DNA of 64,000 nucleotides from Elusimicrobia bacterium GWB2_63_16 (GTDB lineage: Bacteria > Elusimicrobiota > Elusimicrobia > Elusimicrobiales > UBA9959). Shown here one piece after another: positions 2,426 through 36,143 of this stretch. A model generated the notes under the pieces. That model searched no databases. It was not told the origin of the DNA and saw only the letters and a list, made by a program, of their open reading frames with translations. The translations under genes were made by a program, and so were the position numbers. The first letter of the stretch is position 1. Each line of letters begins with the position of its first letter. The DNA is taken from NCBI GenBank assembly GCA_001799715.1, contig MGTZ01000041.1, forward strand, positions 35,420 to 99,419, in the 5' to 3' direction.

Positions 2426-2459
2426 ACGACACGCCCTTGTCGGGGTGCCGTGCTATACT
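2426..2459 (+). promoter_or_regulatory. Putative WYL-activator (-26) promoter of recQ
   Basis: ACGACA-N6-TGTCGG-N10-TATACT; ATG 8 nt after the -10, so probably leaderless. Confidence 0.7.
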
Positions 2460-2466
2460 ATTAGGG

Positions 2467-4314
2467 ATGAGTCCGGAAGAAATACTGAAAAAACGCTGGG
2501 GCTACGACGCCTTCAAGCCGCTGCAGCGCGAGGCCATAGAGGCCGCGCTGGCCGGCCGCGACTCGCTGGTGGTGCTGCCCACCGGCGGCGGCAAAAGCCT
2601 CTGCTACCAGCTGCCGGCCGTGGCCGGGCAAGGCCTGGTGCTGGTGGTCTCCCCGCTCATCGCCCTGATGGACGACCAGGTGGCCGCCGCCCGCGAGGCG
2701 GGCCTGGCCGCCGACGCGTTGCATTCCAATTTAAAAGTCGGCCCCAAGCGCGAAGTTTACGCCAACCTCAACAACGGGACCACCGAACTGCTCTATGTCA
2801 GCCCCGAGCGGCTGCTGGCCGGCGACCTGTACGAGGCCATAGCCCCGCGCCTGATACTCGCGGCCGTGGACGAGGCGCACTGCGTGTCGCACTGGGGCCA
2901 CGAGTTCCGCCCCGAGTACCGCAAGCTGACCGAGGCGCTGGACCTGTTCCCCAAGGCCGCCCGCATGGCCCTCACCGCCACCGCCACGCCCGCCGTGCGC
3001 CAGGACATACTGGAGCGGCTGGGCCTGCGCTCCCCCGAGATTTTAGTGGGCCACCCGGACCGGCCCAACTTGGTTTACCGCGCCTTCCCGCGCCGCGACC
3101 AGATCAAGCAGGTGCTCGAGGCCGTGCGCCGCCATCCCGGCGAGGGGGGCATAGTGTACGCCCAGACCCGCAAGGACGTGGAGCGCCTGGCCGCCAAGCT
3201 CAAAGAGGAAGGCGTCTCCTGCGCGCCCTACCACGCCGGCCTCGGCGCCGAGGAGCGCCGCCAGGCCCAGCACGATTTCGTCAACGAGCGGCTGGACGTG
3301 ATAGTGGCCACCATCGCCTTCGGCATGGGCATAGACCGCTCCAACGTGCGCTACGTCATCCACGCCAACACGCCCCGCTCCGTGGAGCATTACCAGCAGG
3401 AGAGCGGCCGCGCCGGCCGCGACGGCCAGCCGGCCGAATGCACGCTGCTGTTCTCGGCGTCGGACCTGGCCACCCACCGCTGGCTGGCCAAGAAGGATTT
3501 TACGCTGCCGCCCGAGCGCCTGAAGGCGCTGGAGAAACAGCTGCGCGACATAGGCCGCTACGCCTCGGCGCCCGTCTGCCGCCACGGCCTGCTGGCCGCC
3601 CATTTCAGCGCGCCCTACCCGGCGGACGGCCGCGCCCAGGACGGCTGCGGCGCCTGCGACGTCTGCCTGGGCGAGACCAAGGGCCTGCCCGACGACGAGG
3701 CCCTGCTGACCGCCAAGAAGGTGCTCTCGGCCGCCTGGCGCGCCGAGGGCCGCTACGGCACCGGCTACGTGGTGAATTTGCTGCTGGGCCGCCCCAACGA
3801 CCGCATGGCCGCCAACGGGCACGACAAGCTGCAGGTGTTCGGCCTGCTCAAGGAGGCCGGCGAGCCCGCCGTGCGCTCCTGGATAGACCAATTGATAGTA
3901 CAGGATTTCCTGGAAGTCACCGAGGACAGCGAATACCCGCTGCTGCGCATCACCGCCGAGGGCCGCGCCCTCTGCCAGGACCGCGGCAGCGTTAAACTGG
4001 GCCAGCCGGCGCCGGCCGGCAAGGCCAAGAAGAAGCCCAAGGCCCTCAAGGCCGTGGCCGGAGACTTCTCGGACGCCGACGAAGCCGTGTTCCACCGCCT
4101 GCGCGCCCTGCGCCGGGCGCTGGCCGACAAGGCCGGCATCCCGCCCTACGTCATCTGCCACGACTCCGCCCTGGTGGAGATGGCCGCCGCCAGGCCCGCC
4201 ACGCCGGAGGCGCTGCTGGAGATCAAGGGCATGGGCGAGAAGCGCGTGCAGAAATACGGCGCCGCTTTCCTGGCCGCCGTGGCCGGCCAGGGTGACCTGC
4301 CGGAAGCCGACTGA
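2467..4314 (+). CDS. recQ: ATP-dependent DNA helicase RecQ
   Basis: LPTGGGKSLCYQLP, DEAHCVSHWGHEFRPEY, ATIAFGMGID, QESGRAGRDG, Zn-binding, RQC and HRDC domains; start at ATG 2467. Confidence 0.97.
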   Translation: MSPEEILKKRWGYDAFKPLQREAIEAALAGRDSLVVLPTGGGKSLCYQLPAVAGQGLVLVVSPLIALMDDQVAAAREAGLAADALHSNLKVGPKREVYANLNNGTTELLYVSPERLLAGDLYEAIAPRLILAAVDEAHCVSHWGHEFRPEYRKLTEALDLFPKAARMALTATATPAVRQDILERLGLRSPEILVGHPDRPNLVYRAFPRRDQIKQVLEAVRRHPGEGGIVYAQTRKDVERLAAKLKEEGVSCAPYHAGLGAEERRQAQHDFVNERLDVIVATIAFGMGIDRSNVRYVIHANTPRSVEHYQQESGRAGRDGQPAECTLLFSASDLATHRWLAKKDFTLPPERLKALEKQLRDIGRYASAPVCRHGLLAAHFSAPYPADGRAQDGCGACDVCLGETKGLPDDEALLTAKKVLSAAWRAEGRYGTGYVVNLLLGRPNDRMAANGHDKLQVFGLLKEAGEPAVRSWIDQLIVQDFLEVTEDSEYPLLRITAEGRALCQDRGSVKLGQPAPAGKAKKKPKALKAVAGDFSDADEAVFHRLRALRRALADKAGIPPYVICHDSALVEMAAARPATPEALLEIKGMGEKRVQKYGAAFLAAVAGQGDLPEAD

Positions 4315-4421
4315 GGGCCGCCGGCGCCGCGCAATTCATGGGCTTTAACTTGAACCGCTAAATTACTATTTCATAACATATCTTTCGTTAAGGCTGTTGC
4401 TTTGGGTTGCTACAGGGGACG

Positions 4422-5543
4422 ATGAGACTTCTTCTTATACTGCTTCTCGCAGCGCCGGTGTTTTTTGTTCCGGACTGCGGCGCCACTCCGCCTAAGGCTC
4501 TTCTTTCCGCCAGGGAAGCCATCCTCTCGTCCACCGGAACCCCCCAGGCGGCGTTCCTGAAATACGTAGAGGCCTCTAAAAACACCATCGCCGCGCCGGC
4601 GGTGGCCGAATACGCCTATGCGCTGGCCTACGCTGGCATGGGCGAGGCCGCGCTTTACAACATCGACCGGGCGCTGATAACCGAGCCGCTGAACGCGGAA
4701 GTGCGTTTCTACCTGGCGGAGTTGCTCAACGCCGCCGGGCTGGAGGAAGCCTCCTCGGAGCAGTCCGCCCCGGTCCCCGCCTGGCTCGGGGGGAAGCCGC
4801 TCAAGCTGCCTGCGCTGGAGGTGACGGTGCCCGACGGCGATATGGAGCGCGCATCCGCCGCCATCGGCCTGCTGATGGCTCAAAGGCGTTACGCCGAAAG
4901 CGCGGTACTTTACGACAGGCTGTGCGCGAAGCTGCCAGCGGAGCCGCGCTGCCGGGCTGGCTACGCTATCTGCCTTGAAAAGCTGGGCGCATACCGCTCG
5001 GCCGCGGCCGAGGCCGGAAAGGATCTCGCCTTGAGCAGTTCAACGGAGCATAAAGCGGCGGCGGAAGACTACATCTCCGATCTGGGGAAGCGACCGCCGC
5101 TCACTTATTCTTCGGCTAAAACCACCCTCAAAGGACGTTACCTTGCCTATCTGGGCGGGAGCCTGACCAGGGCGGACGGCCGCAGCCTCACGGCGGTGAG
5201 CGCCAGGCTCGGGCGTTTTCTCAGCGAGCGCGTGGACGTCTCGCTGAACGCCGCCCTGACCGGGGGGCGGGAGGATGGCGATTACAACGGCGTGACGCTG
5301 GGCGTAAGCGGGCGCTACAACAAGCCGCTCGGCCTGACTCCGCTTAACTGGACTTTGGCGGCAAAGCTGGAGCGCGTGCCCGCGCCCGAAAAGAACACAA
5401 GCCTGCTGCTTTCCCCCGGTTTAAGCTACTTCACGGCGTCTGGTTCCCTCGATCTGTACCTCGATATAGCTCTCGCGGGAGCCTTCAGCGGCAGCAGGAC
5501 TCTCTCGCTGGGCTACACGGTTTACTTCGGAGGCGGAAAATGA
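4422..5543 (+). CDS. Secreted TPR protein with C-terminal beta-barrel-like domain
   Basis: Signal peptide, TPR-like helices, amphipathic beta-strands ending LSLGYTVYF; ATGA overlap with the next gene. Confidence 0.7.
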   Translation: MRLLLILLLAAPVFFVPDCGATPPKALLSAREAILSSTGTPQAAFLKYVEASKNTIAAPAVAEYAYALAYAGMGEAALYNIDRALITEPLNAEVRFYLAELLNAAGLEEASSEQSAPVPAWLGGKPLKLPALEVTVPDGDMERASAAIGLLMAQRRYAESAVLYDRLCAKLPAEPRCRAGYAICLEKLGAYRSAAAEAGKDLALSSSTEHKAAAEDYISDLGKRPPLTYSSAKTTLKGRYLAYLGGSLTRADGRSLTAVSARLGRFLSERVDVSLNAALTGGREDGDYNGVTLGVSGRYNKPLGLTPLNWTLAAKLERVPAPEKNTSLLLSPGLSYFTASGSLDLYLDIALAGAFSGSRTLSLGYTVYFGGGK

Positions 5544-6262
5544 CCCGGTCCGCGCTGCTCTGCCTGGCGGGCATAGCCGCTTTCCGCCTGGCCGCGGCCG
5601 CGGCCGAGCCCGTAGCCTTTGTCGGGACGCCGGCGGCGTCCGGCGGCGTGGTGCGCCTGAAGGCAGCCGAACCGTATTTGAAGTGGAAGAAAGCCGAGCG
5701 CAAGGCCGCCGTAGAGGCTGAGTCACGCGCGTACTCGGGCGTAGGCGCGGCCGTGGTGGAGTACCCCGGTGGCGGCGAGATCTGGACCGTAGAGGCGGGC
5801 AGCGCCACACTGGCGGATTCGTGGTCGCGCGGCGGCATGCGCTTCGGCCGGCGCGCGCGCAAGGCGGGCCGCTGGTTCGGCCACGTGGGCGGCCAGTTCG
5901 TGCGCGGGGGCGACCTGCCGTCCAACGGCTGGACCGGCCGCCTCGGCACGACCCTCTTCAAAGACCGCTACGACGCGGCGCTGGCTGTGTCGCGCAACAC
6001 GTTCACCGAGTCCGACGACTCGGCGGTGACCACGCTTGGCCTGACCGTGCGCGCGCTGTATCCCTACACCGAGCACGCCGGTTTCAACCTTGGCCTCCAG
6101 CTTGACCGGGTGAGTTACACAGGTTACAGTAACGTTTCGCCCTCGGCGGTCGGGGGCATAAACATCTACCTGCCGGGCGGCAGCTTTGACGTCAGCCTGA
6201 GCTGTGGCGAGGCGGGGCGCCTGTCGCTGCTGGCCGGCTACACGGTATACATCACCAAATGA
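5540..6262 (+). CDS. Putative small outer-membrane beta-barrel protein
   Basis: Signal peptide; beta-strands ending LLAGYTVYITK, similar to the C-terminus of the upstream gene. Confidence 0.65.
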   Translation: MTRSALLCLAGIAAFRLAAAAAEPVAFVGTPAASGGVVRLKAAEPYLKWKKAERKAAVEAESRAYSGVGAAVVEYPGGGEIWTVEAGSATLADSWSRGGMRFGRRARKAGRWFGHVGGQFVRGGDLPSNGWTGRLGTTLFKDRYDAALAVSRNTFTESDDSAVTTLGLTVRALYPYTEHAGFNLGLQLDRVSYTGYSNVSPSAVGGINIYLPGGSFDVSLSCGEAGRLSLLAGYTVYITK

Positions 6263-9200
6263 TACGCGCCAGAACACTGCTCATCCCATTGCTGACGCTC
6301 CTGGCGTCCGGCTCCGGTGCGGCGACGCTTTCCGGGACCTGCAAAGTGACGGGGAACAGTTTCTCTTCTCCGTACGGCTACTGCGAACAGACTTTCGCGT
6401 TCTCGAGCGTCGAGCTTAGCGATGCCGACTGCCAGCTGTACAAGGCGCAGATGGACGGCGAAGCCTGCCGCGCGGTCGCGCCGTCCGGCGCCTGTAACTT
6501 TACGGCGGGCTATCTGCTGAGCGCCAACTGCAGCGGCGGCGGTTCAGGCTCCGGCTCCTGGTTCGGCGGCAGCGCGTTCTCGCTCGAACCGTTCGCCAGG
6601 CTCAATCCGTTCGGCCCGGAAGAGGGCGAGGCGTTCTACTCCGGCCACTACGGCTCCGGCCTGGAGGATTGGCGCGACGACGCGCTGGAGCGGTGGCGCG
6701 CCTACCTGGCCCGCAACGCATTGGCCAAGGAAACCGGCGTGTTCATCGGGCCGGACAATCCGTTCGCCCGGTCGCTGGAGTGGCTCTACCGGGCCCTGGC
6801 CGGCTCCAAACAGCCGGCCGCGCAGGTGGCGGGCACGTTCACCAATCTCGACTCCTCGCCGGAAACTGCGAGTTCCGCGCGTTACCAGGAAGACTTCGTG
6901 GGCAAGACGGTGCCGCTCCTGCGCGGCGAGGACGCATCCGGCCCTGCTGATGGCGGCTTCTCCGCGGTGAGCGGCAATAATCACGTGGCCGCGCATTGCC
7001 AGAGCGAGCCCGCGCTTTCCATCCCGCCTAGCTTCGGGGTTTCGTACGATTCCCTCTATGGCGGCCGGTCCGAGACCATCGGCCTGGCGCTGGAGCGCTT
7101 CCCCGACGGGCGGGCGGTATTTACGGACGGTTCCAACACCCGCTGGACGTTCAGGCCGTACGGGAAGCTGTCCCCGAAAAAAGGCGATAACTATTATCGT
7201 CCTCCCCTCGGTTCGCCCTACCGCCTGCTACTGGGCAAGCGCGGCTACCGCGTGGAGACTCCGGATGGCGACGTGATAGAGTTTTCGCCCGCGCCCGGTG
7301 AAGAGCGCTGGCGCCCCAGCCGCTACAACGCCGCTGACGGCAGCTGGCTCACCTATGCCTACGGCCCCAATGGTCTCGCCCGCATCACGGATATGCACGG
7401 CCGCTACTACGCTTTCGAACGCGACGCTAAAGGCCTGCCCCTGAGCGTCACCGACCAGAGCGGCAGGAAGACGGTCTTCGCCTACGACGCCCAGGGCCGG
7501 ACCACGGAAGTGGCCTCGCCCGACGGCTTTAAAAAACGTTTCGATTACAACGCCGCCGGCCAGCTGACCGCCGTGAAGAGCGGCTCCCTCGCCGAGGAGC
7601 GGTTTACTTATGATGCCTCCGGCCGGGTGCTTACCTCGGAGGCGGCGGGCGGCGTGAACCGCCTTGAGCATTACTATAACGACGCCGCCTCGAAGACCGT
7701 AATCACTGACGGGCTGGGGAGCCGGACAGAGTATTCCTATGTGAACGAATACGGCCGCAAGTTGACCACCGGGATCACGGACGCACTGGGCGGCCGGGTT
7801 TCCCTGTCATACGACCCGAATTACAACCTCGCCTCCGCCACCGACCAGCTTGGCCGCACCGTGAAGTATATTCGTAACTCCAACGGCGACCCCGAGGTTA
7901 TTACCGATGCTATCGGCAGCACTTCTACCATCCAGTACCAGGTAAAGCGCAAGTACCACGACGCCGCCGGAGAGCATGCCGACTATTATTCCAGGCCCAT
8001 AAGAATAGCCGACGCGCTGGGACGCGTTACCAGCCTGGGGTATGACAAGTACGGCAACCTCGCCAAGACCGTGGACGCTCTTGGCAACGGGACGGAGATG
8101 GACTACGACAAAGCCGGGCATATGTTGAGCCTGCGCGACGCTACGGGGGCCACTTACAGTTATGAGTACGGCAGGGGCCTGTCCCGGAGCGTCGACCCCC
8201 TGGGACGGGCGACCAGGTATCAGCGCGACGCCGAGGGCCGCGTGGCGCTGCTCACCGACCCGCTGGGCAGGAACACCTCTTTCACCTACGACCTCAGCGG
8301 CAACGTCACCTCCGTCACCAACCCGCAGAACTTCGTCATAAAATTCGCTTATGGCGACGGTGCCTGCCCGTCTTGCGCCGGCGGGCAGCTTGCGTCCCTT
8401 ACCGACCCCAAGGGCAATACCTGGGCTTTCAATTACGACCAGTACGGCAGGCTGAGCGATACCGCCAACCCACTTGGCCAGAAGAAAACCTATCAGTACG
8501 ACATGATGTCACGCGTGACCGAAGTGAGAGACCCGGCGGAGAATCTCACTACCTATGCCTACGACGCGATGGGCAGGCTTACCAGAAAGGACATAGAATC
8601 CCCTTCCGGCGGGCACGCAGTAACGACCTACGTCTATGACAAGACGGGGAATCTTTTGAACGCCGCCAACGGCAACGGCATGGTCAGCTTCACTTACGAC
8701 GCACTTAACCGCCCTGTAAAGACAGAGCAGCTGTTCGCCGGCAGGTCCTACGCCATCGCCTACGCCTACGACGCTGTGGGCAACCGCACCAGCATGACCA
8801 CGCCGTGGGGGAAATATACCTACACCTACGATGCCCTGAACAGGCAGACGGGGATAGTTAACCCGCAGGGGATAAACGTGTCATTCGGCTACGACGCTGT
8901 CGGCCGCCGCACCAGCAAGAAGATATTCAAGACCACGCCGGAACTCCTGGCCGAGACCAGTTATTCCTACGACGCCGCGGGGCAGTTGCTCAATATCACC
9001 AACAAGGCGGGCGGCAAGGTTGTGGCCTTTACCAACTACCAATACGACGCCGCCGGCAACCGCGTTAAGAAGGAAGACCGGGACGGCACGACGCAGTACC
9101 GGTACGATGCCTCCAACCGCCTCATCACGGCGGAGCCAGTCCCGATGAAGATGGAGGATGCCGAAGTCTTCATCTACGACCGTAACGGCAACCGCCGCTA

Positions 9201-10353
9201 CGATAAGGGTGCCTGGGATTACAAATACGACGCGGCCAATCGTCTCTTGGAGAACTCCACCTACACCTACACCCACGACCTCAACGGCAATCTGACCGGC
9301 CGTGCCGACAAGCGGGACAATAGCACAATCACCTACGTCTACAACCCGGAGCAGCAACTTTCAGAAGTCATAACCCCTGAGCACAAGGTGCAGTATAAGT
9401 ACGACCCGCTGGGCCGCCGCCTTGAAAAGTCAGTGGACGGCAATATTGTGAGATTCTTCTCAGATGGACAGGATATTATCGCGGACCTTAACGCCGCCGG
9501 CAACCCTATAAACATCTACATCAACGGTCCAGGCATTGACGAGCCGCTGGTGATGACCAAGCCGGACGGCAAGAGCTACTACTATCATGCCGACGCCTTA
9601 GGAAGCGTAATAGCGATTGCGGACGATAGTAACCAAATTGTCGAAACCTACAGCTATAAAGCCTACGGGCAGCCGACGATAAAGGACGTCCAGGGCCAGA
9701 CCATCGAAAGCTCAACCATCGGCAACACTAGGATGTTCGCAGCCAGAGAGTATGAGAGTGAAAGCGGGTTGTACAGCAATCGCCACCGCTACTTAGACCC
9801 AGGCAGAGGCGCATTCACGCAGGAAGATTCTATAGGGTTTGTAGGCGGAAATTCAAATTTATATGTTTATGCGAAAAATCTGCCAAGCAAATATTCGGAC
9901 TCAACGGGCTATATTTTAGAAGAGGCAAAGTTGTGGTGGAAGGGTTTTGGATGGCATACCCATCAGGAAATTATTGATATCTACGCGAAAGATTTTAATC
10001 TTGCTAACGCGAGATTTGTGTTTTATAAACCCGATCTGCAAGCGGAGGGGCACACCTATTATAAGTACGGTGTAACTGGGGTTGCAATATCTGAAGTTGC
10101 TTTTACCAACCCTGGCTGGCTGAAATCAACAATTGGACATGAAGCTCAGCATGTGCAGGATATAGAGGCTATAAAAGCACATAAAATGGGTGGGGCGGAG
10201 GCTGAGGTCAGGGCATATGGGTGGGAATTAACCGCTGGATATATAAAAACAGATTCTGACGATATTCTGTCTGTCCTGGAGCAGTATCAAAAGAATTACA
10301 GTCTGCTCTCTCCAGAGTTGAAGAAGAAGTACTCAAGATGTCCAGGGAACTAG
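6259..10353 (+). CDS. Rhs/YD-repeat polymorphic toxin with signal peptide and C-terminal HExxH metallopeptidase-like tip
   Basis: Many YD repeats; Rhs core end RYLDPGRGAFTQEDSIG...PSKYSDSTG; tip GHEAQH...EAEVRAY; GC drops at the tip. Confidence 0.92.
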   Translation: MIRARTLLIPLLTLLASGSGAATLSGTCKVTGNSFSSPYGYCEQTFAFSSVELSDADCQLYKAQMDGEACRAVAPSGACNFTAGYLLSANCSGGGSGSGSWFGGSAFSLEPFARLNPFGPEEGEAFYSGHYGSGLEDWRDDALERWRAYLARNALAKETGVFIGPDNPFARSLEWLYRALAGSKQPAAQVAGTFTNLDSSPETASSARYQEDFVGKTVPLLRGEDASGPADGGFSAVSGNNHVAAHCQSEPALSIPPSFGVSYDSLYGGRSETIGLALERFPDGRAVFTDGSNTRWTFRPYGKLSPKKGDNYYRPPLGSPYRLLLGKRGYRVETPDGDVIEFSPAPGEERWRPSRYNAADGSWLTYAYGPNGLARITDMHGRYYAFERDAKGLPLSVTDQSGRKTVFAYDAQGRTTEVASPDGFKKRFDYNAAGQLTAVKSGSLAEERFTYDASGRVLTSEAAGGVNRLEHYYNDAASKTVITDGLGSRTEYSYVNEYGRKLTTGITDALGGRVSLSYDPNYNLASATDQLGRTVKYIRNSNGDPEVITDAIGSTSTIQYQVKRKYHDAAGEHADYYSRPIRIADALGRVTSLGYDKYGNLAKTVDALGNGTEMDYDKAGHMLSLRDATGATYSYEYGRGLSRSVDPLGRATRYQRDAEGRVALLTDPLGRNTSFTYDLSGNVTSVTNPQNFVIKFAYGDGACPSCAGGQLASLTDPKGNTWAFNYDQYGRLSDTANPLGQKKTYQYDMMSRVTEVRDPAENLTTYAYDAMGRLTRKDIESPSGGHAVTTYVYDKTGNLLNAANGNGMVSFTYDALNRPVKTEQLFAGRSYAIAYAYDAVGNRTSMTTPWGKYTYTYDALNRQTGIVNPQGINVSFGYDAVGRRTSKKIFKTTPELLAETSYSYDAAGQLLNITNKAGGKVVAFTNYQYDAAGNRVKKEDRDGTTQYRYDASNRLITAEPVPMKMEDAEVFIYDRNGNRRYDKGAWDYKYDAANRLLENSTYTYTHDLNGNLTGRADKRDNSTITYVYNPEQQLSEVITPEHKVQYKYDPLGRRLEKSVDGNIVRFFSDGQDIIADLNAAGNPINIYINGPGIDEPLVMTKPDGKSYYYHADALGSVIAIADDSNQIVETYSYKAYGQPTIKDVQGQTIESSTIGNTRMFAAREYESESGLYSNRHRYLDPGRGAFTQEDSIGFVGGNSNLYVYAKNLPSKYSDSTGYILEEAKLWWKGFGWHTHQEIIDIYAKDFNLANARFVFYKPDLQAEGHTYYKYGVTGVAISEVAFTNPGWLKSTIGHEAQHVQDIEAIKAHKMGGAEAEVRAYGWELTAGYIKTDSDDILSVLEQYQKNYSLLSPELKKKYSRCPGN
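8461..8817 (+). repeat. Near-identical direct repeat shared with orphan Rhs (12203-12559)
   Basis: About 357 bp with few mismatches; offset 3742 bp. A second identical 54-bp block lies at 9367-9420 / 13109-13162. Confidence 0.9.
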
Positions 10354-10357
10354 TTTT

Positions 10358-10975
10358 ATGAAAAGCAACAGTATTTGGAAAATGAGTGTTTGCTCGTTAT
10401 GTCTGTTTGTTGTTATTCTTTTCGGTCAAAAACTAGTTTTCAGGAAAAATGTAAATCAGATAAATGAAGGTTTCGACTGTATTAAAGGAATGGCGTCAGG
10501 AGTTGGCGGTACAGAAAGAACGGCAGCAAAATCGTTGGAGTTTACAGTCCATTTTGAGAAGCAGGAGTATTCATTGTCTGAGCGAATTCCCATAAAAGCA
10601 ACTTTCAACAATACTTCAGATGAAGATTATTATATCGCGATCAGCAATCTTGAAGGCGGACTAGTATTCCGTGCAGAGGAGGGGTCTGTCGGAGAGATCG
10701 TTAGCAAATCAGTTTTGCTGGGAAGACCGGGCTTTCATGGAAAAGATTACTATTATCTGCTCAAAAAACATGAAAGTAAGGTGATAGCCGTTGAGTTCAA
10801 TAAATTGTATTCCGTGAGTCCGATTGGGGAATATAAAATAACAGCGAAATATTGGAACTGCACTGCCGGGAATGTATACACAAGGGTGCCTGCTTGGAAA
10901 TTCTGGAAGACTCAAAATAGGGTTTGGATCGGGGGGGTTGAGTCTAACGCGGTTTCTGTTAAATTTGTGAAATGA
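10358..10975 (+). CDS. Putative immunity protein of Rhs tip 1 (membrane-anchored)
   Basis: Starts 4 nt after the rhs stop; AT-rich; N-terminal hydrophobic segment. Confidence 0.65.
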   Translation: MKSNSIWKMSVCSLCLFVVILFGQKLVFRKNVNQINEGFDCIKGMASGVGGTERTAAKSLEFTVHFEKQEYSLSERIPIKATFNNTSDEDYYIAISNLEGGLVFRAEEGSVGEIVSKSVLLGRPGFHGKDYYYLLKKHESKVIAVEFNKLYSVSPIGEYKITAKYWNCTAGNVYTRVPAWKFWKTQNRVWIGGVESNAVSVKFVK

Positions 10976-11099
10976 TATTAATGCAGGATTGGTTGCTGCA
11001 GTTGCTCGCTGTTGAGAATGTAAAGTGTTGCGTAGGGTGAAAATCAGGAATTAGGAACAAACGCCCCCTCTTTCGGCCCAGAGCCACAGGGGATTTGAT

Positions 11100-11315
11100 A
11101 TGGCTATAAATGAAACAGCATTTTGGGCGGTATTTGTGTCTGGCGTAGTGAGTGCTTTTCTGGGGAGTATTTTGGGGATAATGCTCTATCCCACATTTAA
11201 TCAAGTTATTGGGGGGTATGCGAAATATGGCTCGTGGGGGATTGGCGTTTGTGCGGCAGCGATTCTGTTTGCGTTCACACGCTATTGGATTGTCCATCTG
11301 CTGAAGCATAAATGA
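11100..11315 (+). CDS. Small 2-TM membrane protein (possible orphan immunity)
   Basis: RBS AGGGGA; two hydrophobic segments; inside the low-GC cassette region. Confidence 0.45.
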   Translation: MAINETAFWAVFVSGVVSAFLGSILGIMLYPTFNQVIGGYAKYGSWGIGVCAAAILFAFTRYWIVHLLKHK

Positions 11316-11388
11316 TTCTGGGGTCACGGCGTCGATATCAAAAAGAAGAGAAGGCGAGGGATCTTCGCAATATTCGGAAGAGGGAGGG

Positions 11389-12069
11389 GTGCCAGTGAAA
11401 AGCCAGAGTGACGCGAAACTTCGAGAGCAAATCTTGTTCAGCGAAGGAGCACAACTTGCTGGAGTATCATCTGCTTGCGCTATTAAGATATTGTGCGCAT
11501 TTGCCAGAGACAAAAGCCCGGAGTTGCGGATGCGTGTGTATGAGCGCATGAGCGCATACAAGGGACGAGAGATAGCCATGTGTCTTATGCGTTCACTGCA
11601 TAAAGAGAAGGATGTTTTGGCCACAATCGCAGCCATGGAGAGTGTCGGGTGCCTGAAGATAACGTCTGCGATGAAAATACTTATTGCTAAATTGCATCAC
11701 AGAAATCCCATGGTGCGGGGATATGCTGCGATTGTTTTAAGTGAGCGTTATGGGGCGAAAGTGTTGCGTCAGTTGGAAACCATATTAAAAAAAGAACGCT
11801 CGGCTTGGGGAAAGGCTGCATTGTATATAGGGATGTATAAGGCGGGGGCAACATATGTTCTGCCGGATATGTTGCGGTTGCTTAAGTGCCGGCAATATCG
11901 AGTTAGGTCTTTTATTGTGAATAATCTATGCGGCATAAAGTTCAATAATGACATCGATTCGGTCATCAATGCTTTGCGTTCCCAGGTTAAAATAGAAGAA
12001 AATGTGGTGGTCGCTTCTGCTATGAAGCGCGCTTTAAGGTGTGCACGGGCAATTCGGGTTAGGTCTTGA
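11389..12069 (+). CDS. HEAT-repeat protein (possible orphan immunity)
   Basis: RBS GGAGG before GTG; HEAT-like repeats (NPMVRGYAAIVL, YRVRSFIVNNL). Confidence 0.65.
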   Translation: MPVKSQSDAKLREQILFSEGAQLAGVSSACAIKILCAFARDKSPELRMRVYERMSAYKGREIAMCLMRSLHKEKDVLATIAAMESVGCLKITSAMKILIAKLHHRNPMVRGYAAIVLSERYGAKVLRQLETILKKERSAWGKAALYIGMYKAGATYVLPDMLRLLKCRQYRVRSFIVNNLCGIKFNNDIDSVINALRSQVKIEENVVVASAMKRALRCARAIRVRS

Positions 12070-12085
12070 GACTTCCCGGCATCAA

Positions 12086-14104
12086 ATGATTCGATCCACA
12101 TTTCTGCTCATGTTCATGCTCGTGGCTGGGCTTTCGGCCTTTTCGTATGCCTCGTTGCCCATTTCTCCGACCAAGACTGTGATGTGCGGCCGCCTGCCCG
12201 ACACCGCCAACCCACTTGGCCAGAAGAAAACCTATCAGTACGACATGATGTCACGCGTGACCGAAGTGAGAGACCCGGCGGAGAATCTCACCACCTATGC
12301 CTACGACGCGATAGGCAGGCTTACCAGAAAGGACATAGAATCCCCTTCCGGCGGGCACGCAGTAACGACCTACGTCTATGACAAGACGGGGAATCTTTTG
12401 AACGCCGCCAACGGCAACGGCATGGTGAGCTTCACTTACGACGCACTTAACCGCCCTGTAAAGACAGAGCAGCTGTTCGCCGGCAGGTCCTACGCCATCG
12501 CCTACGCCTTCGATACCGTGGGCAACCGCACCAGCATGACCACGCCGTGGGGGAAATATGACTACACCTACGACGCGCTGAACAGACAGACCGGGATAGT
12601 GACCCCCCAGGGGATAACCGTTACCTTCAGTTATGACGCCGTTGGCCGCCGCACGAAGAAGTCTATCTTCAAGAACAGCCCTGAAGTACTTGCCGAGACC
12701 ACCTACTCCTACGATGCCGCCGGCCAACTGCTTTCAATAGTGAACAAAGCCGGCGGCAAAGTCGTTGCCTTCGCCAACTACGAATACGACGCGGCAGGCA
12801 ACCGCGTTAAGAAGGAAGACCAGGACGGCGCTATAAAATACAGATACGACGCCTCCAACCGCCTAATAACGGCCGAGCCAGTCCCCATGAACATGCCGGA
12901 GGCCGAGGTCTTCATCTACGATAAGAATGGCAACCGCCGCTACGACAGGGGCGCCTGGGACTACAAATACGACGCCGCCAATCGCCTTCTGGAGAACACT
13001 ACCTATACCTACACGCACGACCTCAACGGCAACCTGACCAGCCGTACCAAAAAGGACGACAATAGCGCTATCTCTTATGCGTATAATCCTGAGCAGCAGC
13101 TTTCCGAGGTCATAACCCCTGAGCACAAGGTGCAGTATAAGTACGACCCGCTGGGCCGCCGCACGTCAAAGACCGTGGATGGTAGGACGATAAAATTCAT
13201 CTACGACGGCCAGGACATAATAGCCGAGCTGGATGACAATAACTCTGTCATCAACACCTACACCAACGGGCCGGGTATCGACGAGCCTTTGATAATGGCA
13301 AAGACCGACGGCAAGGCATACTACTACTATGCCGACGCCTTGGGCAGCATAAATGCAATCACCGATTACAGTAATCAGGTTGTAGAAACCTATGGTTACA
13401 AAGCCTACGGCCAGCCGACAATAAAGAACGCCTATGGGGAAATAGTCCAGAACTCGGTTATCGGCAACACGCGCATGTTTGCTGCTAGGGAATATGAGCG
13501 CGAGAGTAATATCTATAATAACCGCAATAGATATATGCATCCCGGTATGGGGAGATTTATACAAGAAGATCCTGCTGGTTTTGCAGGTGGAGATGCTAAT
13601 TTGTATGGGTACATTTTGGGGAACCCGCTTGCAGGGCGTGACCCGATGGGGTTATGGATTTATGTTGATAGGAAGGATTATAGGGAGTGGTATTCTTCAC
13701 GACAGAAATTGATTGGGGATCCATCTATTGCTGCTATATTTGAATATCTTGAAACAAATTCAAATAAGGATTATAAAATAATAATAAATTCTTCATTTCA
13801 CAATGAATTTGTCCCGTACGAGAACACTATATATTGGGACCCCAATACATGGGCAAAAACTACCGAAGGTGGCGATAGAAGCCCCACAGTATTATTGGCG
13901 CATGAACTTGCACATGCGCAACTGTTTGATTCTAGTCCTACGTCATACATAAGGTATAAACTTACTGGAATCGTACTGAATCATCTTCTGAATTGGAAGT
14001 ATGATGACCTTGAGGAGTGGCGAGTTATTGAATTATTTGAAAATCAAGCTGCAGGTGCATTAAAGGAATGTCAACGACACGACCATCGTCTTAAGAGGAA
14101 ATAG
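12086..14104 (+). CDS. Orphan (truncated) Rhs cassette with HExxH metallopeptidase-like tip
   Basis: Paralogous to the 3' half of the upstream rhs; NPLAGRDPMG cleavage motif; tip LLAHELAH. Confidence 0.88.
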   Translation: MIRSTFLLMFMLVAGLSAFSYASLPISPTKTVMCGRLPDTANPLGQKKTYQYDMMSRVTEVRDPAENLTTYAYDAIGRLTRKDIESPSGGHAVTTYVYDKTGNLLNAANGNGMVSFTYDALNRPVKTEQLFAGRSYAIAYAFDTVGNRTSMTTPWGKYDYTYDALNRQTGIVTPQGITVTFSYDAVGRRTKKSIFKNSPEVLAETTYSYDAAGQLLSIVNKAGGKVVAFANYEYDAAGNRVKKEDQDGAIKYRYDASNRLITAEPVPMNMPEAEVFIYDKNGNRRYDRGAWDYKYDAANRLLENTTYTYTHDLNGNLTSRTKKDDNSAISYAYNPEQQLSEVITPEHKVQYKYDPLGRRTSKTVDGRTIKFIYDGQDIIAELDDNNSVINTYTNGPGIDEPLIMAKTDGKAYYYYADALGSINAITDYSNQVVETYGYKAYGQPTIKNAYGEIVQNSVIGNTRMFAAREYERESNIYNNRNRYMHPGMGRFIQEDPAGFAGGDANLYGYILGNPLAGRDPMGLWIYVDRKDYREWYSSRQKLIGDPSIAAIFEYLETNSNKDYKIIINSSFHNEFVPYENTIYWDPNTWAKTTEGGDRSPTVLLAHELAHAQLFDSSPTSYIRYKLTGIVLNHLLNWKYDDLEEWRVIELFENQAAGALKECQRHDHRLKRK

Positions 14105-25340: not shown

Positions 25341-25374
25341 CCGACACTCCCTTGTCGGGGTCGCCTGTTAGGAT
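25341..25374 (+). promoter_or_regulatory. Putative WYL-activator (-26) promoter of ORF6N gene
   Basis: CCGACA-N6-TGTCGG-N10-TAGGAT. Confidence 0.7.
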
Positions 25375-25396
25375 ATTTGTGAACAAGGGGGGGTAT

Positions 25397-25918
25397 ATGC
25401 CGAAAAAAGAGATCGCCGGTCAGGTGGAGATAGAAGACCGGATATTCCTGATGCGTGGCCGCCGGGTTATGCTGGACGCGGACCTCGCGGTCCTGTATGG
25501 CGTCAAGACCAAGTATCTGAACCAGCAGGTGAACCGGAACAGCGGCAGGTTCCCCGGGGCTTTCATGTTCAGGCTTACGCTCCGGGAAAGGGACGAACTG
25601 GTTGCAAATTGCAACCGGTTGTCCGGGCTTAAGCATTCCAGCACTATGCCCCGCGCTTTTACCGAGCACGGGGTGGCAATGCTTGCCAGCGTGCTCAGGA
25701 GCGCTATCGCGGTAAAGATAAGCGTAAGCATAATAGAGACTTTCATCAGGCTGAAGGAGATGTTCTCCGCCCATAAGGAACTGGCTGAAAAACTAAGGGC
25801 CTTGGAGCAGAGGATCGCGAGCCATGATGCGGAGATCGGCACTTTGTTCGACGCTATACGTTCCCTGATGCCAAAAGAGGACGATGCCACCAGCCATCAG
25901 ATCGGTTTCCGGCCGTGA
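25397..25918 (+). CDS. ORF6N-domain DNA-binding protein
   Basis: RGRRVMLDADLAVLYGV, RFPGAFMFRL, PRAFTEHGVAMLASVL, terminal IGF. Confidence 0.92.
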   Translation: MPKKEIAGQVEIEDRIFLMRGRRVMLDADLAVLYGVKTKYLNQQVNRNSGRFPGAFMFRLTLRERDELVANCNRLSGLKHSSTMPRAFTEHGVAMLASVLRSAIAVKISVSIIETFIRLKEMFSAHKELAEKLRALEQRIASHDAEIGTLFDAIRSLMPKEDDATSHQIGFRP

Positions 25919-28926: not shown

Positions 28927-28938
28927 GCGGCTCCGCCC

Positions 28939-28977
28939 AAAGAAGAACCCCGCGTTTTAGCGCGGGGTTCTTCTTTT
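28939..28977. terminator. Bidirectional intrinsic terminator
   Basis: AAAGAAGAACCCCGCG-loop-CGCGGGGTTCTTCTTT. Confidence 0.8.
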
Positions 28978-29065
28978 ATCCCGACAAGCCCTTGTGGTTG
29001 TGTCCGTAGCGGCGCAGGATAGCGAAGTCCACCCGGGTTGCCCCTCCGCGGCCATCTTCTTCCAG

Positions 29066-29103
29066 CAACCCGACAAGCCCTTGTCGGGTTGGCCTGCTAT
29101 GCT
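29066..29103 (+). promoter_or_regulatory. Orphan copy of the -26 promoter motif
   Basis: CAACCCGACAA-GCCC-TTGTCGGGTTG perfect palindrome; TGTCGG-N10-TATGCT. A degenerate copy lies at 28981-28998. Confidence 0.6.
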
Positions 29104-29124
29104 ATGGGTATGGGGCAGGGGATA

Positions 29125-30117
29125 TTAAACAGGTTTTGCGGCCGGCTCTACGGCCTTAAAGGCGCCGTCCACGACCACTTCCAGGGTGTCGTCGAGGTCG
29201 GTGCGGAACACTTTGGCGCCCGAGCCGAGCAGGCGGCCCAGCGCGTCCTGCGTTGGGTGGCCGTAGTTGTTCTTGCCTACCTCTATGTAAGCCCTGGCGG
29301 GCTGTACGGCCTTCAGGAAGGCGTTGGTGGAGGAGTACTTGCTGCCGTGGTGGCCGACCTTCAGCACGTCGGCGCGCAGCTCGGCGCCGTACCTGGCGGC
29401 CAGCAGTTCCTCGGTCTCGCCCTCGGTGTCGCCGGTGAACAGCATGGAGGAGCCGTTATAGGAGAGCTTGAACATGATGGAGCAGTTGTTGATGACCTTG
29501 CTGGTCTTGCTGGCGGACTCGACCGGGCAGGAGTTGAAGACCTTGATCTCCACGCCCGGGGCGCTCCAGTCCAGCCTGTCGCCGGGGGCGGGGTAAACGG
29601 TGTTGACGCCCAGCGCGCGCACCTGGTCGCGCAGGGTGTTGTCGGCGGCGGCGCCCTTGTTGTCCAGGCGGGTGTCGTAGAAGTTCTCCACGGTTATGTT
29701 GGAGAAGACGTACTGCAGGCCGTTGTAATGGTCGCTGTGGGGGTGGGTGAGCACCACGTGGTCAATCTTGGAGACTTTCTTGGCCGCCAGGAACTTGGCC
29801 AGGCCGCCGTCGGCGGCGCGGGAGGGGCCGCCGTCTATCAGGGCGTTGCGGCCGCCGGGCAGTTCCATATAGATGGCGTCGCCCTGGCCGACATTAAGGA
29901 AATATACATTAAGGCCGGGGCCGGCGGCGTAGAGGGTGGCGTCCTGCGGGGGCGGCGCCAGCGGTATCTCCACCGCGGGGGCGGCGGCCAGCAACTGGCC
30001 GTAGGCCTGTGCGGCGGCGGAGGGGGCAAAATGGAATACGGTTAGGAAAAGAAGAAAGGCCGAAAGGGCTGCTTTGAATACTGCGGGGACTGGAGAGTTC
30101 TGGTTCACGCGATGCAT
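29125..30117 (-). CDS. Secreted MBL-fold hydrolase (ComEC/Rec2 C-terminal-like nuclease)
   Basis: NVGQGD, THPHSDH, NNCS, LFTGD, LKVGHHGS, NNYGHP, RTD; signal peptide; no ComEC membrane domain. Confidence 0.9.
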   Translation of the reverse strand: MHRVNQNSPVPAVFKAALSAFLLFLTVFHFAPSAAAQAYGQLLAAAPAVEIPLAPPPQDATLYAAGPGLNVYFLNVGQGDAIYMELPGGRNALIDGGPSRAADGGLAKFLAAKKVSKIDHVVLTHPHSDHYNGLQYVFSNITVENFYDTRLDNKGAAADNTLRDQVRALGVNTVYPAPGDRLDWSAPGVEIKVFNSCPVESASKTSKVINNCSIMFKLSYNGSSMLFTGDTEGETEELLAARYGAELRADVLKVGHHGSKYSSTNAFLKAVQPARAYIEVGKNNYGHPTQDALGRLLGSGAKVFRTDLDDTLEVVVDGAFKAVEPAAKPV

Positions 30118-30246
30118 ATCCACCTCCCACTGCCTGCGCCGGCGCTTGAAGTAAGTGCGCGCCGCTCGCTCCGGCCCAGTGGTGAATCCGGATTAAGGTC
30201 CGGAGGTGGATGCTTCCCGGCCAATCCCGGGAATTACACAGAAGCC
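30118..30246 (-). ncRNA. Putative structured cis-regulatory 5' leader
   Basis: Promoter TTGAGC-N17-TAACCT (30281-30253); anti-SD AUCCACCUCC pairs with SD GGAGGUGGAU; nested stems. Confidence 0.5.
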
Positions 30247-31297: not shown

Positions 31298-32893
31298 ATG
31301 GATGACCAGGAAATAGAGTTCAACGAGCAGTTCAGCCGCGCGCTGAACGTGCTGCAGCACGGCACCGGCAACGTCTTCGTTACCGGCAAGGCCGGCACCG
31401 GCAAGAGTACCCTGCTGCGCTATTTCCGCGCCCATACGGACAAGAAGATAGTGGTGCTGGCCCCCACCGGGGTGGCCGCGCTGAACGTGGCCGGCGAGAC
31501 CATCCATTCCTTCTTCCGCTTCAAGCCTGGCACCACTCCCGACAGGGTGCGGCGCGCCCGCAAGCGCGACGCCGAGCTGTACAAGGCGCTCGACGCCATC
31601 GTGATAGACGAGGCCTCCATGGTGCGCGCCGACCTGCTGGACTGCGTGGACGCCTTCATGCGCCTCAACGGCCGCGACCCGGGCAAGCCATTCGGCGGGG
31701 CGCAACTGGCGCTGTTCGGGGACCTCTACCAGCTGCCGCCGGTGGTGACAGGCTCCGAGCGCGACTTGTTCCGCACCTACTACCCCGGCCCCTATTTCTT
31801 CAACGCGCGGGTCTTCGCCCAGGCCTCTATAGAATACCTGGAACTGGAGAAGATCTACCGCCAGCGGGACCAGAACTTCATCGAGATACTCAACGCCATC
31901 CGCAACAACCGCGTGAGCCCCGCCCAGCTGGAATTGCTGAACCGGCGCGTGGGCGCCGACGTGGAGAGCGCCGGCCGAGGCATCGTGGTGCGGCTGCTCA
32001 CCACCAACGCCGACGCGGCGGAGATCAATAACGAGCGCCTGCGGGCCATAGACGGCCGGGCGCAGGTCTACAAGGCCGGGATCGCCGGTGAGTTCTCCCG
32101 CGACTCCTACCCGGCCGACGAGGAGCTGCACCTGAAGGCCGGCGCGCAGGTGATGCTGCTCAACAACGACCCCGACGGCCGCTGGGTGAACGGCACCATG
32201 GCCGTGCTGCAGGATATCATGAAGGGCCGGCCCGGCGCCGAGGACGTGATACACGTGCGCCTGGCCGACGGCTCGGTGGAGCCGGTGGAGCAGCACGCCT
32301 GGGAGCTCTTTCATTTCGCTTTCGACGCGGCCGCGGGCAAGATCAAAGCCGAGACGGCCGGCACGTTCAGGCAGTTCCCGCTCAAGCTGGCCTGGGGCAT
32401 AACGATACACAAGAGCCAGGGCAAGACCTTCGAGCGCGCCGTCATAGACCTGGGCCGCCGCGCCTTCGCCGCCGGGCAGACCTACGTGGCGCTCTCGCGC
32501 TGCACCGCGCTGGAGGGCCTGTCGCTGGCGCGGGCGGTGCGCCCGTCGGACGTGATGACCGACTGGCGCATAGTGCGCTACGTCACCGGCCACCAGTACG
32601 GCGCCAGCGAACAGCTGATGCCCGCGGCCGACAAGATACGGCTGATAGAGCGCGCCATCGCCGAGGGACGCTGCCTGGAACTCACCTACCTGAAGGCCAC
32701 CGACGAGAAGAGCCGCCGCCTGGTGCGGCCGGTGAGCGTGGGGGACTGCGCCTACCAGAAGACCAAATTCAAAGGCTTGGTGGCGGACTGTCTTGCCCGC
32801 GGCCAGCGCCGCACCTTCAGGGTGGACCGCATACTGGAGCTGAAGGCCGCCGACGCCGGCGAAAAAAAGCAGGAAGATACGGGGGACTTATGA
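31298..32893 (+). CDS. PIF1-family (SF1B) helicase with C-terminal WYL domain
   Basis: GKAGTGKS, DEASM, GDLYQLPPV, QFPLKLAWGITIHKSQG, YVALSR; C-terminal AIAEGRCLELTY...RRTFRVDRI. Confidence 0.93.
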   Translation: MDDQEIEFNEQFSRALNVLQHGTGNVFVTGKAGTGKSTLLRYFRAHTDKKIVVLAPTGVAALNVAGETIHSFFRFKPGTTPDRVRRARKRDAELYKALDAIVIDEASMVRADLLDCVDAFMRLNGRDPGKPFGGAQLALFGDLYQLPPVVTGSERDLFRTYYPGPYFFNARVFAQASIEYLELEKIYRQRDQNFIEILNAIRNNRVSPAQLELLNRRVGADVESAGRGIVVRLLTTNADAAEINNERLRAIDGRAQVYKAGIAGEFSRDSYPADEELHLKAGAQVMLLNNDPDGRWVNGTMAVLQDIMKGRPGAEDVIHVRLADGSVEPVEQHAWELFHFAFDAAAGKIKAETAGTFRQFPLKLAWGITIHKSQGKTFERAVIDLGRRAFAAGQTYVALSRCTALEGLSLARAVRPSDVMTDWRIVRYVTGHQYGASEQLMPAADKIRLIERAIAEGRCLELTYLKATDEKSRRLVRPVSVGDCAYQKTKFKGLVADCLARGQRRTFRVDRILELKAADAGEKKQEDTGDL

Positions 32894-33564: not shown

Positions 33565-33622
33565 CGTCGGCACAAATAAAAAAAGCGCGGCCAGTGGCCG
33601 CGCTTTTTTGCGCCCCGGGGCG

Positions 33623-35325: not shown

Positions 35326-35342
35326 AGGTAATATAGTCTACC

Positions 35343-36059
35343 TCATACCGGCGGGTTGTCAAGGGCGGGCGGCGCGGAGGGCGCGGCGTTCGCGCTTAGG
35401 CCGTACCTGACGTAGATCTCGCGCACGCAGTCGGCGTAGGGTTTGCGCTTCTCGGGGGTGAAATCACGGTAGACCAGCTCCACGGCCCGGCCGGCGCCGA
35501 ACATGGCGTGGTCTATGGGGAACAGCGCCTCGCTGCCGGCGGGCAGGAATTCCTTCTTCATCTCCAGGCGCAGGCCCCAGCCGGCCAGCAGCGACAGGCA
35601 GTACACCCATTTCTGCGTGGCCTTGTTGAAGATCTTGAGCACCGGGCCGGGGTTCTTGGCAGTGTTGGGGCGCATCTCCCAGGTCTGGCCCGGGGCGTCG
35701 CCGGCGGCGGCCATCAGCTCGGCCCAGAATTCGCGGAAAGCCTCGGCGGACTTGGGGTAGCGCACGGCGATATGCTTTACGAACTTCTCGAACTCCTCTC
35801 GGATCAGCGCCGGGTCGGTCTTCACCGTTTTGGCCCGCTCCCGGTTCTCCTCCTCGAGCTTCAGGCGGGTGACCAGGTCGCGCAGGGCGGCGGTCTCGGC
35901 CTCCGTGGCGGGGGCCAGGTACTGGGATTTGAAGGTCATGCGTTCGCCGGCCAGCGGCTGCACGGTGATATTCTCGCCGGCCACCTTCACCACCACGCCG
36001 AGGGCTTTGTTGATGGTATTGCGCACCGGCGCGTAAATTTCAAAGGTCGTGGGTTCCAT
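35343..36059 (-). CDS. Hypothetical protein (SH3-like N-terminus)
   Basis: Genome-typical codon usage from ATG 36059; RBS AGGGG. Confidence 0.7.
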   Translation of the reverse strand: MEPTTFEIYAPVRNTINKALGVVVKVAGENITVQPLAGERMTFKSQYLAPATEAETAALRDLVTRLKLEEENRERAKTVKTDPALIREEFEKFVKHIAVRYPKSAEAFREFWAELMAAAGDAPGQTWEMRPNTAKNPGPVLKIFNKATQKWVYCLSLLAGWGLRLEMKKEFLPAGSEALFPIDHAMFGAGRAVELVYRDFTPEKRKPYADCVREIYVRYGLSANAAPSAPPALDNPPV

Positions 36060-36081
36060 AGCCCCTAATTCTACAAAAATC

Positions 36082-36105
36082 CCTATCGGGGCTTCGCCTC
36101 GATAG
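36082..36105. repeat. REP-like palindrome (copy 2, inverted)
   Basis: CTATCGGGGC-TTC-GCCTCGATAG. Confidence 0.7.
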
Positions 36106-36109
36106 CAAC

Positions 36110-36143
36110 CCGACAAGCCCTTGACGGGGTGGCCTGCTAGGAT
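36110..36143 (+). promoter_or_regulatory. Putative WYL-activator (-26) promoter of radC
   Basis: CCGACA-N6-TGACGG-N10-TAGGAT. Confidence 0.7.

Follow-up and report, generated by a model that had tools for sequence, protein, structure and literature searches.

The recurring promoter CCGACA-N6-TGTCGG-N10-TANNNT, which occurs four times in a stretch of 64,000 nucleotides (nt) from Elusimicrobia bacterium GWB2_63_16 (assembly GCA_001799715.1, contig MGTZ01000041.1, positions 35,420 to 99,419; this whole stretch is called the window below), is probably the binding site of the one helix-turn-helix (HTH)-WYL-WCX protein found in the genome. Like DriD and DdaA, that protein would be a homodimeric activator switched by single-stranded DNA (ssDNA), and its regulon would centre on DNA repair. 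A wider and more tentative proposal is that this WYL ssDNA sensor runs recombination and repair across a family of Elusimicrobiales through the N6 palindrome, and that it also represses an exported, deoxyguanosine-induced DNase by means of a translated antisense RNA, switching the cell from DNA as food to DNA as template.

The four copies reported in a first-pass annotation, made from the sequence alone, are present with identical geometry, each right arm ending 10 nt before a -10 hexamer that is preceded by TG (4/4). The palindrome is perfect in copies 2 and 3, and carries one mismatch in copy 1 (left arm ACGACA) and in copy 4 (right arm TGACGG). With up to one mismatch allowed, the full pattern matches the window five times, namely the four copies plus copy 3 read in reverse; in 100 shuffled sequences it never matches (mean 0.00, maximum 0). 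Pfam and NCBIfam profiles uphold the assignment of recQ, an ORF6N gene and radC to copies 1, 2 and 4. Copy 3, which had been called an orphan, is instead a conserved putative antisense promoter facing the 3' end of a convergent gene. The boxes and the genes behind them are as follows.

2426..2459, + strand: Box 1, recQ promoter, ACGACA-N6-TGTCGG, N10, extended -10 TATACT (from sequence)
2467..4314, + strand: recQ helicase gene (Pfam DEAD, Helicase_C, RQC, HRDC)
25341..25374, + strand: Box 2, promoter of the ORF6N gene, perfect palindrome, -10 TAGGAT (from sequence)
25397..25918, + strand: ORF6N-domain gene (Pfam; the PADLOC candidate PDC-S05 also matches)
29070..29103, + strand: Box 3, antisense promoter in the 3' untranslated region of a nuclease gene, perfect palindrome, -10 TATGCT (from sequence and orthologues)
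36110..36143, + strand: Box 4, radC promoter, CCGACA-N6-TGACGG, -10 TAGGAT (from sequence)
36174..36848, + strand: radC (JAB-domain) gene (family profile match)

The recQ start codon lies 7 nt past the -10 of Box 1, such that a leaderless mRNA is predicted. The recQ product scores 614.7 bits against TIGR01389, slightly below the cut-off of 640.2, and exceeds the cut-off of TIGR00614. A terminator-like hairpin stands immediately 5' of Box 2.

Perfect CCGACA-N6-TGTCGG palindromes number 24 in the source genome (2.87 Mb, 91% complete); 22 of them carry TANNNT at exactly N10, making 23 oriented promoters with one palindrome bidirectional. The shorter core CGACA-Nx-TGTCG occurs 35 times at N6 and 0 to 5 times at every other spacing from N3 to N9, and the single N5 palindrome has no -10. 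A weight matrix yields 32 sites of at least 40 bits and two degenerate sites near 32 bits, over a background below 19 bits and shuffled sequences that peak at 5 to 12; the matrix was trained on 29 of the same sites, which makes the site scores circular, and only the gap to the background is used. Three weak matches in coding sequences (C4 62922, C45 32138, C60 92013) were excluded before the count of 32. The consensus of the 32 sites is CGACA-N6-TGTCG, 11 nt and a -10 box, in which the arms are conserved, the left as well as the right, and the spacer is variable. TG precedes the -10 at 25 of the sites. At the spacing of a normal -35 (16 to 18 nt), none of the 32 matches TTGACA at more than three of six positions, as had been remarked for the four window copies.

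For five repair genes (recQ, a radical-SAM gene, comM, a DinB-like gene and an AddA-like gene) an ATG lies 6 to 7 nt past the -10, and likewise in relatives; these leaderless-type starts independently support the placement of the -10 and of the +1 position. The right arm with a -10, TGTCG-N11-TANNNT, occurs 76 times in the genome, whereas other spacings give 18 to 45 matches each. A left arm with no more than one mismatch accompanies 33 of the 76; two-arm sites thus account for the surplus at 11 nt, and single-arm promoters are not in excess. Two outcomes that the first-pass annotation had named as refuting are not seen: the N10 spacing is conserved in the whole genome, and the boxes are not scattered in the manner of a repetitive extragenic palindrome (REP) but stand singly and upstream, oriented at one exact distance from the -10.

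The 32 sites head genes of a few kinds. Ten head repair or recombination units, namely recA, recQ, radC, a second ssb, comM with dprA downstream of it, dinD (above its NCBIfam cut-off), a DinB-like polymerase, an AddA/RecB-like helicase, an SbcCD-like pair and the TIGR03916/TIGR03915 radical-SAM pair. Eight head defence or toxin-antitoxin units, restriction genes among them and two of the units broken, and five head Y1/RAYT (REP-associated) transposase genes, that is, all four complete genes found by Pfam and one cut by a contig end. All three ORF6N genes of the genome follow a box, and the remaining six sites, Box 3 included, have other targets. Among relatives, a box precedes radC at 30/30 loci (the best-scoring of 72 positive genomes) and the ORF6N gene at 21/30 (the best-scoring of 46), which ties both proteins to the regulon as had been suggested; for recA, it is present in 5/8 family genomes examined and in 0/3 more distant genomes.

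The candidate binder is encoded outside the window, where a regulator of this type had been postulated. A single gene on the minus strand of another contig (C53:25653-26594) specifies a protein of 314 residues in which HTH_11, WYL and WCX all exceed their Pfam cut-offs, a size within the ~300-335 residues of the homodimeric WYL activators, and the close homologues of this protein bear Elusimicrobia or Elusimicrobiales names. The only other WYL match in the genome is a Pif1-like helicase with a C-terminal WYL domain, encoded in the window (31298-32893, + strand) and rejected as the regulator because it has no HTH. No box precedes the helicase gene, and similar WYL matches of 510-580 residues are found in three other genomes (G052, G058, G084).

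The box tracks the WYL family across genomes. In a sample of 150 genomes from the phylum, the box is found in 35/45 genomes with a WYL homologue and in 11/105 without, and three or more copies are found in 27/45 and 1/105, respectively. Within the family, the exact pattern CGACA-N6-TGTCG-N11-TANNNT is present in 68 of 73 other genomes, with up to 56 copies, against 0 to 1 for a reversed control; the WYL protein is found in 65 of the 73, all five box-free genomes have no WYL match, and the gene is single-copy in most genomes of the genus. At 33 loci around WYL homologues, where spacers of N4-N8 were tested, all 19 perfect palindromes have the N6 spacer and a -10 after 11 nt, and many lie about 50 nt 5' of the WYL gene itself.

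The protein also resembles the known activators. Its predicted fold (mean pLDDT, a per-residue confidence score, of 75.7) retrieves DriD first (E 9.7e-13), followed by PafBC, CapW and BrxR, and the model has a helical linker between the winged HTH (wHTH) and WYL domains (helices 72-75, 79-95 and 97-111, pLDDT ~60-70), as in the activators and unlike the helix-hairpin of BrxR and CapW. The recognition helix has two conserved arginines, R40 and R44, spaced like R46 and R50 of PafB, which read the guanines of GTC (PMC8635444). The conserved residues Y153, Y177 and R194 align with the DriD ssDNA contacts Y168, Y192 and R207.

Several observations weigh against this assignment. The genomes are kin and not independent, so that P values for the co-occurrence overstate it; 10 of the 45 WYL-positive genomes in the phylum sample have no perfect box, and three family genomes (81-92% complete) have boxes and yet no WYL match. 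No box lies within 1.5 kb of this genome's own WYL gene, nor of the three nearest orthologues tested, and most of the WYL homologues adjacent to boxes are only 25-33% identical to this genome's protein. The fold model has a pTM, or whole-fold score, of 0.35, and sequence searches do not separate DriD from PafBC: the profile searches give 45.7 bits for DriD, 44.1 for PafC and 60.9 for fused PafBC, and the best single-sequence match in the PDB is PafC (E 8.4e-5). The position of DriD Arg204 is occupied by Ala191, beside a conserved Lys192. As for the targets, boxes had been predicted before recA, uvr, ruv and ssb genes; recA and a second ssb have one, while uvrA, uvrB and ruvB (located by NCBIfam models) as well as radA have none within 3 kb upstream in this genome.

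Outside the family, the box takes a more restricted form. In the sister families f2 and f12 (for example G050:C3, G140:C40 and G038:C2), the N6 box is found only in clusters near WYL genes, where it is often a two-way promoter of the WYL gene itself, and it is absent at recA in both genomes checked. To judge from these arrangements, the box of f2 and f12 is a local form of the putative regulon that is global in family f1. A scan of the GTDB collection gives at least 123 stretches with the pattern, and among the 80 matches listed, 59 are from Elusimicrobiota and 17 from other phyla; those 17 have no WYL gene within 1.5 kb and may be chance matches. The same N6 box with a -10 does precede a gene for an AlkZ-like DNA glycosylase in two Bacillota genomes (L146, a Paenibacillus, and L199), a hint that the N6 geometry may exist outside Elusimicrobiota.

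Box 3 differs from the other window copies in that it points into a convergent nuclease gene, whose stop codon is 21 nt away. The features of this locus, apart from Box 3, are as follows.

28939..28977, no strand: inverted repeat with an A run and a T run at its sides, likely a bidirectional terminator for the convergent genes (seen in the sequence; a consensus scan did not report it)
28981..28998, + strand: partial duplicate of the box, with left arm, spacer and broken right arm (from sequence)
29110..30045, + strand: antisense reading frame of 311 codons, with its ATG 6 nt past the -10 of Box 3, codon-in-register with the nuclease gene (from sequence)
29125..30117, - strand: stand-alone gene for a ComEC-type beta-lactamase-like metallo-hydrolase, a predicted exported DNase (Pfam Lactamase_B; TIGR00361 partial)
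30174..30244, - strand: 2'-deoxyguanosine-II (2'-dG-II) riboswitch aptamer in the nuclease leader (Rfam RF03165, 72.1 bits against a cut-off of 60)

The nuclease has as its best PDB match competence protein E (9ic4), an isolated ComEC nuclease domain (E 2.5e-32), and its hydrophobic N-terminus was judged by eye to be a signal peptide. The nuclease domain of ComEC degrades DNA (PMC12455585); here, the nuclease comes without the ComEC channel, and a WYL-type antisense promoter faces its gene from the 3' side. The leader matches the 2'-dG-II riboswitch class (PMC6847200, PMC9295807) over its full length and above the gathering score, 56 nt before the nuclease start codon, and the riboswitch is present in 20/20 genus orthologues tested. 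In the predicted fold, the core of the aptamer is complementary to the ribosome-binding site, and such anti-Shine-Dalgarno pairing is found in 24/28 orthologue leaders; from this, the ligand is predicted to switch the nuclease on. According to Weinberg et al. (2017), 2'-dG-II switches reportedly often precede genes with ComEC domains.

The antisense box is conserved with the nuclease. It has a perfect core in 30/30 of the best-scoring genus orthologues (of 38), and antisense boxes span six genera. At 40 further homologue loci, 18 have both box and riboswitch, one has only the box, six have only the riboswitch (four of these with a short or masked flank) and 15 have neither; a quick tree of the nuclease was used only to tell orthologues from paralogues. 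Downstream of the box, an antisense start codon in register with the nuclease codons is present at 32/32 loci, over gaps of 18-122 nt, and is leaderless at 20 and led by a Shine-Dalgarno sequence at 12; it also follows 17 of 19 further antisense boxes. By comparison, 2/15 paralogues, 1/30 radC loci and 1/30 ORF6N loci have an antisense ATG that is in register and no more than 60 nt from the stop. The in-register frame is the only long one on the antisense strand, with a median of 303 codons compared with 41 and 27 for the others.

The frame was considered as a conserved protein and rejected. Its length varies from 147 to 321 codons among orthologues, its product has no Pfam match and an AlphaFold pLDDT of 24, and the nuclease gene beneath it shows a divergence at four-fold sites that is not reduced (0.373, compared with 0.358 for radC, in 25 genomes). 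Codons equivalent to antisense stops are no rarer in the nuclease gene than in radC, and in a genome this rich in GC, long antisense frames in register with a gene are nothing unusual. A conserved start with a product that is not protein-like suggests selection for the loading of ribosomes on the antisense RNA. In short, the activator would fire a translated antisense transcript from Box 3 through the nuclease gene; the ribosomes would protect the RNA from Rho, the gene for which is present in the genome, and the RNA would override the 2'-dG riboswitch and shut the nuclease off.

As a conserved sequence arrangement, this putative antisense brake is well supported. That the antisense RNA silences the nuclease is the least certain step of the explanation, and we consider it evenly poised. 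Against it stand two genomes whose antisense box has no in-register start, and four further loci where the frame, though in register, ends within 3-57 codons beyond the stop of the nuclease gene. Alternatively, though we think it doubtful, Box 3 may have no part in nuclease regulation and may either express a real overlapping protein or be the left-over promoter of a lost cassette. A start codon that stays in one frame through many insertions and deletions, ahead of a frame open for ~300 codons in most genomes, is what such a protein would leave, but the variable length, the undiminished silent divergence, the lack of stop avoidance and the absence of a Pfam match or a confident fold argue otherwise, as does the frequency of long in-register antisense frames at this GC content. 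Boxes do often follow terminators ahead of mobile cassettes, as a relic would; a relic, however, would not retain a perfect core in 30/30 genomes and across six genera.

A segment of ~90 nt that opens with the broken box precedes Box 3 and two other boxes (window 28981-29069; C16 near 26325; C59 near 19130), as if a small element had inserted into the palindrome and duplicated the box.

The mechanism of activation proposed here for the WYL protein is drawn from DriD, DdaA and PafBC. Single-stranded DNA, arising from damage or from incoming DNA, would bind the WYL domains and release the pair of winged helices, each of which could then read one of the half-sites that flank the -35 position. The dimer would then hold the housekeeping RNA polymerase on a promoter with only a -10, often extended, and thereby switch on genes for recombination and repair together with the defence and mobile cassettes that bear the same promoter.

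DriD of Caulobacter crescentus (PMC13004042, PMC10853764; PDB 8tp8, 8tpk, 9pfv, 9pfq) has the same order of wHTH, helical linker, WYL and WCX, and likewise reads, at promoters without a -35, a CGAC...GTCG palindrome that covers the -35 position and keeps a constant distance to the -10. Both of its helices sit on this palindrome, and the polymerase is anchored via the alpha C-terminal domain and beta (PMC13004042); counted on the printed probes of that paper, the right arm also lies 11 nt before the -10. The DriD box, however, is CGAC-N7-GTCG, with five bases between CGACA and TGTCG and centres that are mostly AT-rich, whereas here there are six bases and the centres are mostly GC-rich. The identity of DriD to the WYL protein here is 17-19%. 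Alongside a complete SOS system, DriD controls a few targets, compared with 9-56 boxes, recA included, in most genomes of the genus here, and no antisense target of DriD was found in the text consulted, in contrast to Box 3.

DdaA of Acinetobacter and the Moraxellaceae (PMC12392091, PMC13010146) is homodimeric as well and replaced LexA within that one family. Its global regulon, like the one proposed here, joins recA and ssb with restriction genes, and also includes CRISPR genes; it too has alanine in place of the first arginine that contacts ssDNA (PMC12392091), which is the substitution seen at Ala191. The DdaA box is CGWCA-N5-TGWCG, ~50 bp upstream of the start site, and its regulon contains uvrA/C, ruvAB and gyrA/B, in contrast to the N6 box here and the absence of boxes at uvrA, uvrB and ruvB; the phylum is also another. 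To judge by the spacer, with 35 palindromes at N6 against one at N5, the N6 box is a variant and its putative binder is probably neither a DriD nor a DdaA orthologue.

With PafBC of mycobacteria (PMC8635444; PDB 7p5x, 9fnd), the likeness is in the right arm and spacing, tGTCgg(N10)tA(N3)T, in the two arginines of the recognition helix and in a recA gene that has this promoter plus a second, canonical one (the latter read here from the sequence). PafBC is, however, a heterodimer that acts on one non-palindromic site by sigma adaptation, as opposed to the one gene and the full palindrome found here. The first-pass annotation had proposed the same sigma-adaptation mechanism for this promoter, with one helix of the WYL protein on the right arm at -28 to -23 and, in our formulation, the other under sigma domain 4. 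The identity of the right arm and N10 to the PafBC consensus, the ranking of PafC among single PDB sequences, the dependence of the homodimer SiwR on its -26 region (PMC10693628) and a longer spacer that alters the geometry relative to DriD would all suit such a mode. The left arm, though, is conserved as well as the right, the 11-nt excess is explained by two-arm sites, and only one HTH-WYL-WCX gene was found in this 91%-complete genome, with no PafB/PafC pair or fusion. The 11-nt spacing, being equal in DriD, PafBC and this genome, does not by itself point to sigma adaptation. Given both arms kept and no excess of single arms, the DriD mode is favoured and sigma adaptation appears improbable.

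It is less probable still that another dimeric activator, or an alternative sigma factor, is the binder and that the signal is competence or DNA uptake rather than damage. Four of the targets (ssb, radC, dprA and comM) are cytoplasmic members of the competence regulon of H. influenzae (PMC1635313), and a ComEC-like nuclease is among the targets too. Yet comEC itself (contig C43) has no box within 5.5 kb upstream, and dinD, the DinB-like polymerase and the radical-SAM pair indicate damage; the -10 is of the housekeeping type, TANNNT, and the box both tracks and flanks WYL genes.

Damage control by a WYL activator must also be set beside LexA, since the first-pass annotation called the promoter LexA-independent. 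This holds in that the box does not track LexA; the genome does, however, contain a LexA-like gene, divergent from recA. It encodes 218 residues with an HTH and an S24 peptidase and scores 84 bits against TIGR00498 (cut-off 111). At recA, the WYL box is accompanied by a second, canonical -35/-10 promoter further upstream, such that dual control is possible. The idea that the palindrome is the operator of this repressor draws on the divergent gene, on the SOS-like content of the regulon and on matches to the LexA HTH family in 27/38 genus genomes, and it is hardly credible in view of the remaining evidence. A fixed position without a -35 suits an activator. Four genera that bear boxes have no LexA HTH match (g5 0/7, g69 0/3, g67 0/3, g65 0/2), and the g5 genomes, four of which are 100% complete, hold 8-35 boxes each. 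Conversely, one genome with a strong LexA match (G160) has neither a WYL match nor a box, another (G103) has a LexA-like protein of 71% identity and no box, and in the phylum sample the box occurs in 17/45 LexA-like-positive genomes and in 29/105 negative ones.

The intergenic region between recA and the lexA-like gene (L003:1194-1440, contig C39) has canonical -35/-10 promoters back-to-back for both genes. A 16-nt stretch over these promoters is shared with G120 and the distant G103 and occurs once in the genome, a candidate self-operator; a search for a genome-wide LexA box found that the stretch common to three lexA-like promoters occurs once. In the sister family f2, lexA-like promoters (L089, L090, L093, L095, L103) carry the direct repeat TAGAAC-N6-TAGAAC, with a period of 12 bp, a candidate LexA box that is absent from the source genome. 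The sequence GTTAACATAA is retained 5' of the WYL box at recA in four genomes of three genera (L003, L104, L105, L106), in two of them just after a second -10. Among the 14 public RNA runs listed, none contains half of the words of the recA-lexA stretch; four runs consist of short contigs from mixed relatives, which show neither starts nor strand.

Least probable of all is an origin of the palindrome as a REP-like or mobile hairpin that RAYT transposases have spread, with the look of a promoter secondary: the Y1 transposase genes do follow boxes, REP-like hairpins adjoin boxes 1 and 4 and three boxes share the 90-nt upstream segment, but the single, oriented placement at one exact -10 distance, the varying spacer between conserved arms, the different repeat that flanks the RAYT genes (GGGGACGCTG, 68 copies) and the persistence of the box at recA and radC in relatives all speak against it. 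It is the same hairpin that stands beside Box 1 (window 2398-2423) and beside Box 4 (window 36081-36106), and five copies in the genome match.

Elsewhere in the window, a canonical dinB and an SRAP-family gene (43753-44922 and 50763-51494) have no box, unlike another, divergent Y-family polymerase gene that the same contig carries. Positions 6259-14104, with a pair of RHS-repeat genes and small genes beside them, may be a polymorphic toxin locus.

Literature searches, made mostly without subscription papers and without supplements, found no WYL regulon in Elusimicrobiota, no N6 box, no ORF6N gene in a damage regulon and no WYL-driven antisense transcription, nor an activator-driven translated antisense RNA that opposes a riboswitch on a DNA-scavenging nuclease. 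The supplementary motif tables of DdaA homologues in PMC12392091 could contain N6 variants. What is new here, as read from the sequence, is the conserved putative antisense promoter at the 3' end of a riboswitch-led nuclease gene, an arrangement for whose reconstruction in a laboratory strain ~1.3 kb and one gene would suffice.

For a phylum with few cultured members, the palindrome provides a defined and testable repair regulon. This would be a third independent lineage, after Actinobacteria and the Moraxellaceae, in which a WYL activator and not LexA appears to control recA, and a box that is one base longer with an unchanged right arm would be a natural test of how a homodimeric WYL activator seats on RNA polymerase. 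RadC, ORF6N proteins, RAYT transposases and many defence cassettes would be linked to an ssDNA signal. If the antisense proposal is true, regulatory antisense transcripts that are proofed against Rho would in general be recognisable by their conserved antisense start codons. A simpler alternative hypothesis for the locus is that deoxyguanosine released by repair would falsely trigger the nuclease, and that the antisense RNA overrides this trigger. If the fuller proposal is true, an unstressed cell would feed on outside DNA and, on damage, would spare that DNA while inducing RecA, DprA, ComM, SSB and RadC, thereby switching from DNA as food to DNA as a template for repair.

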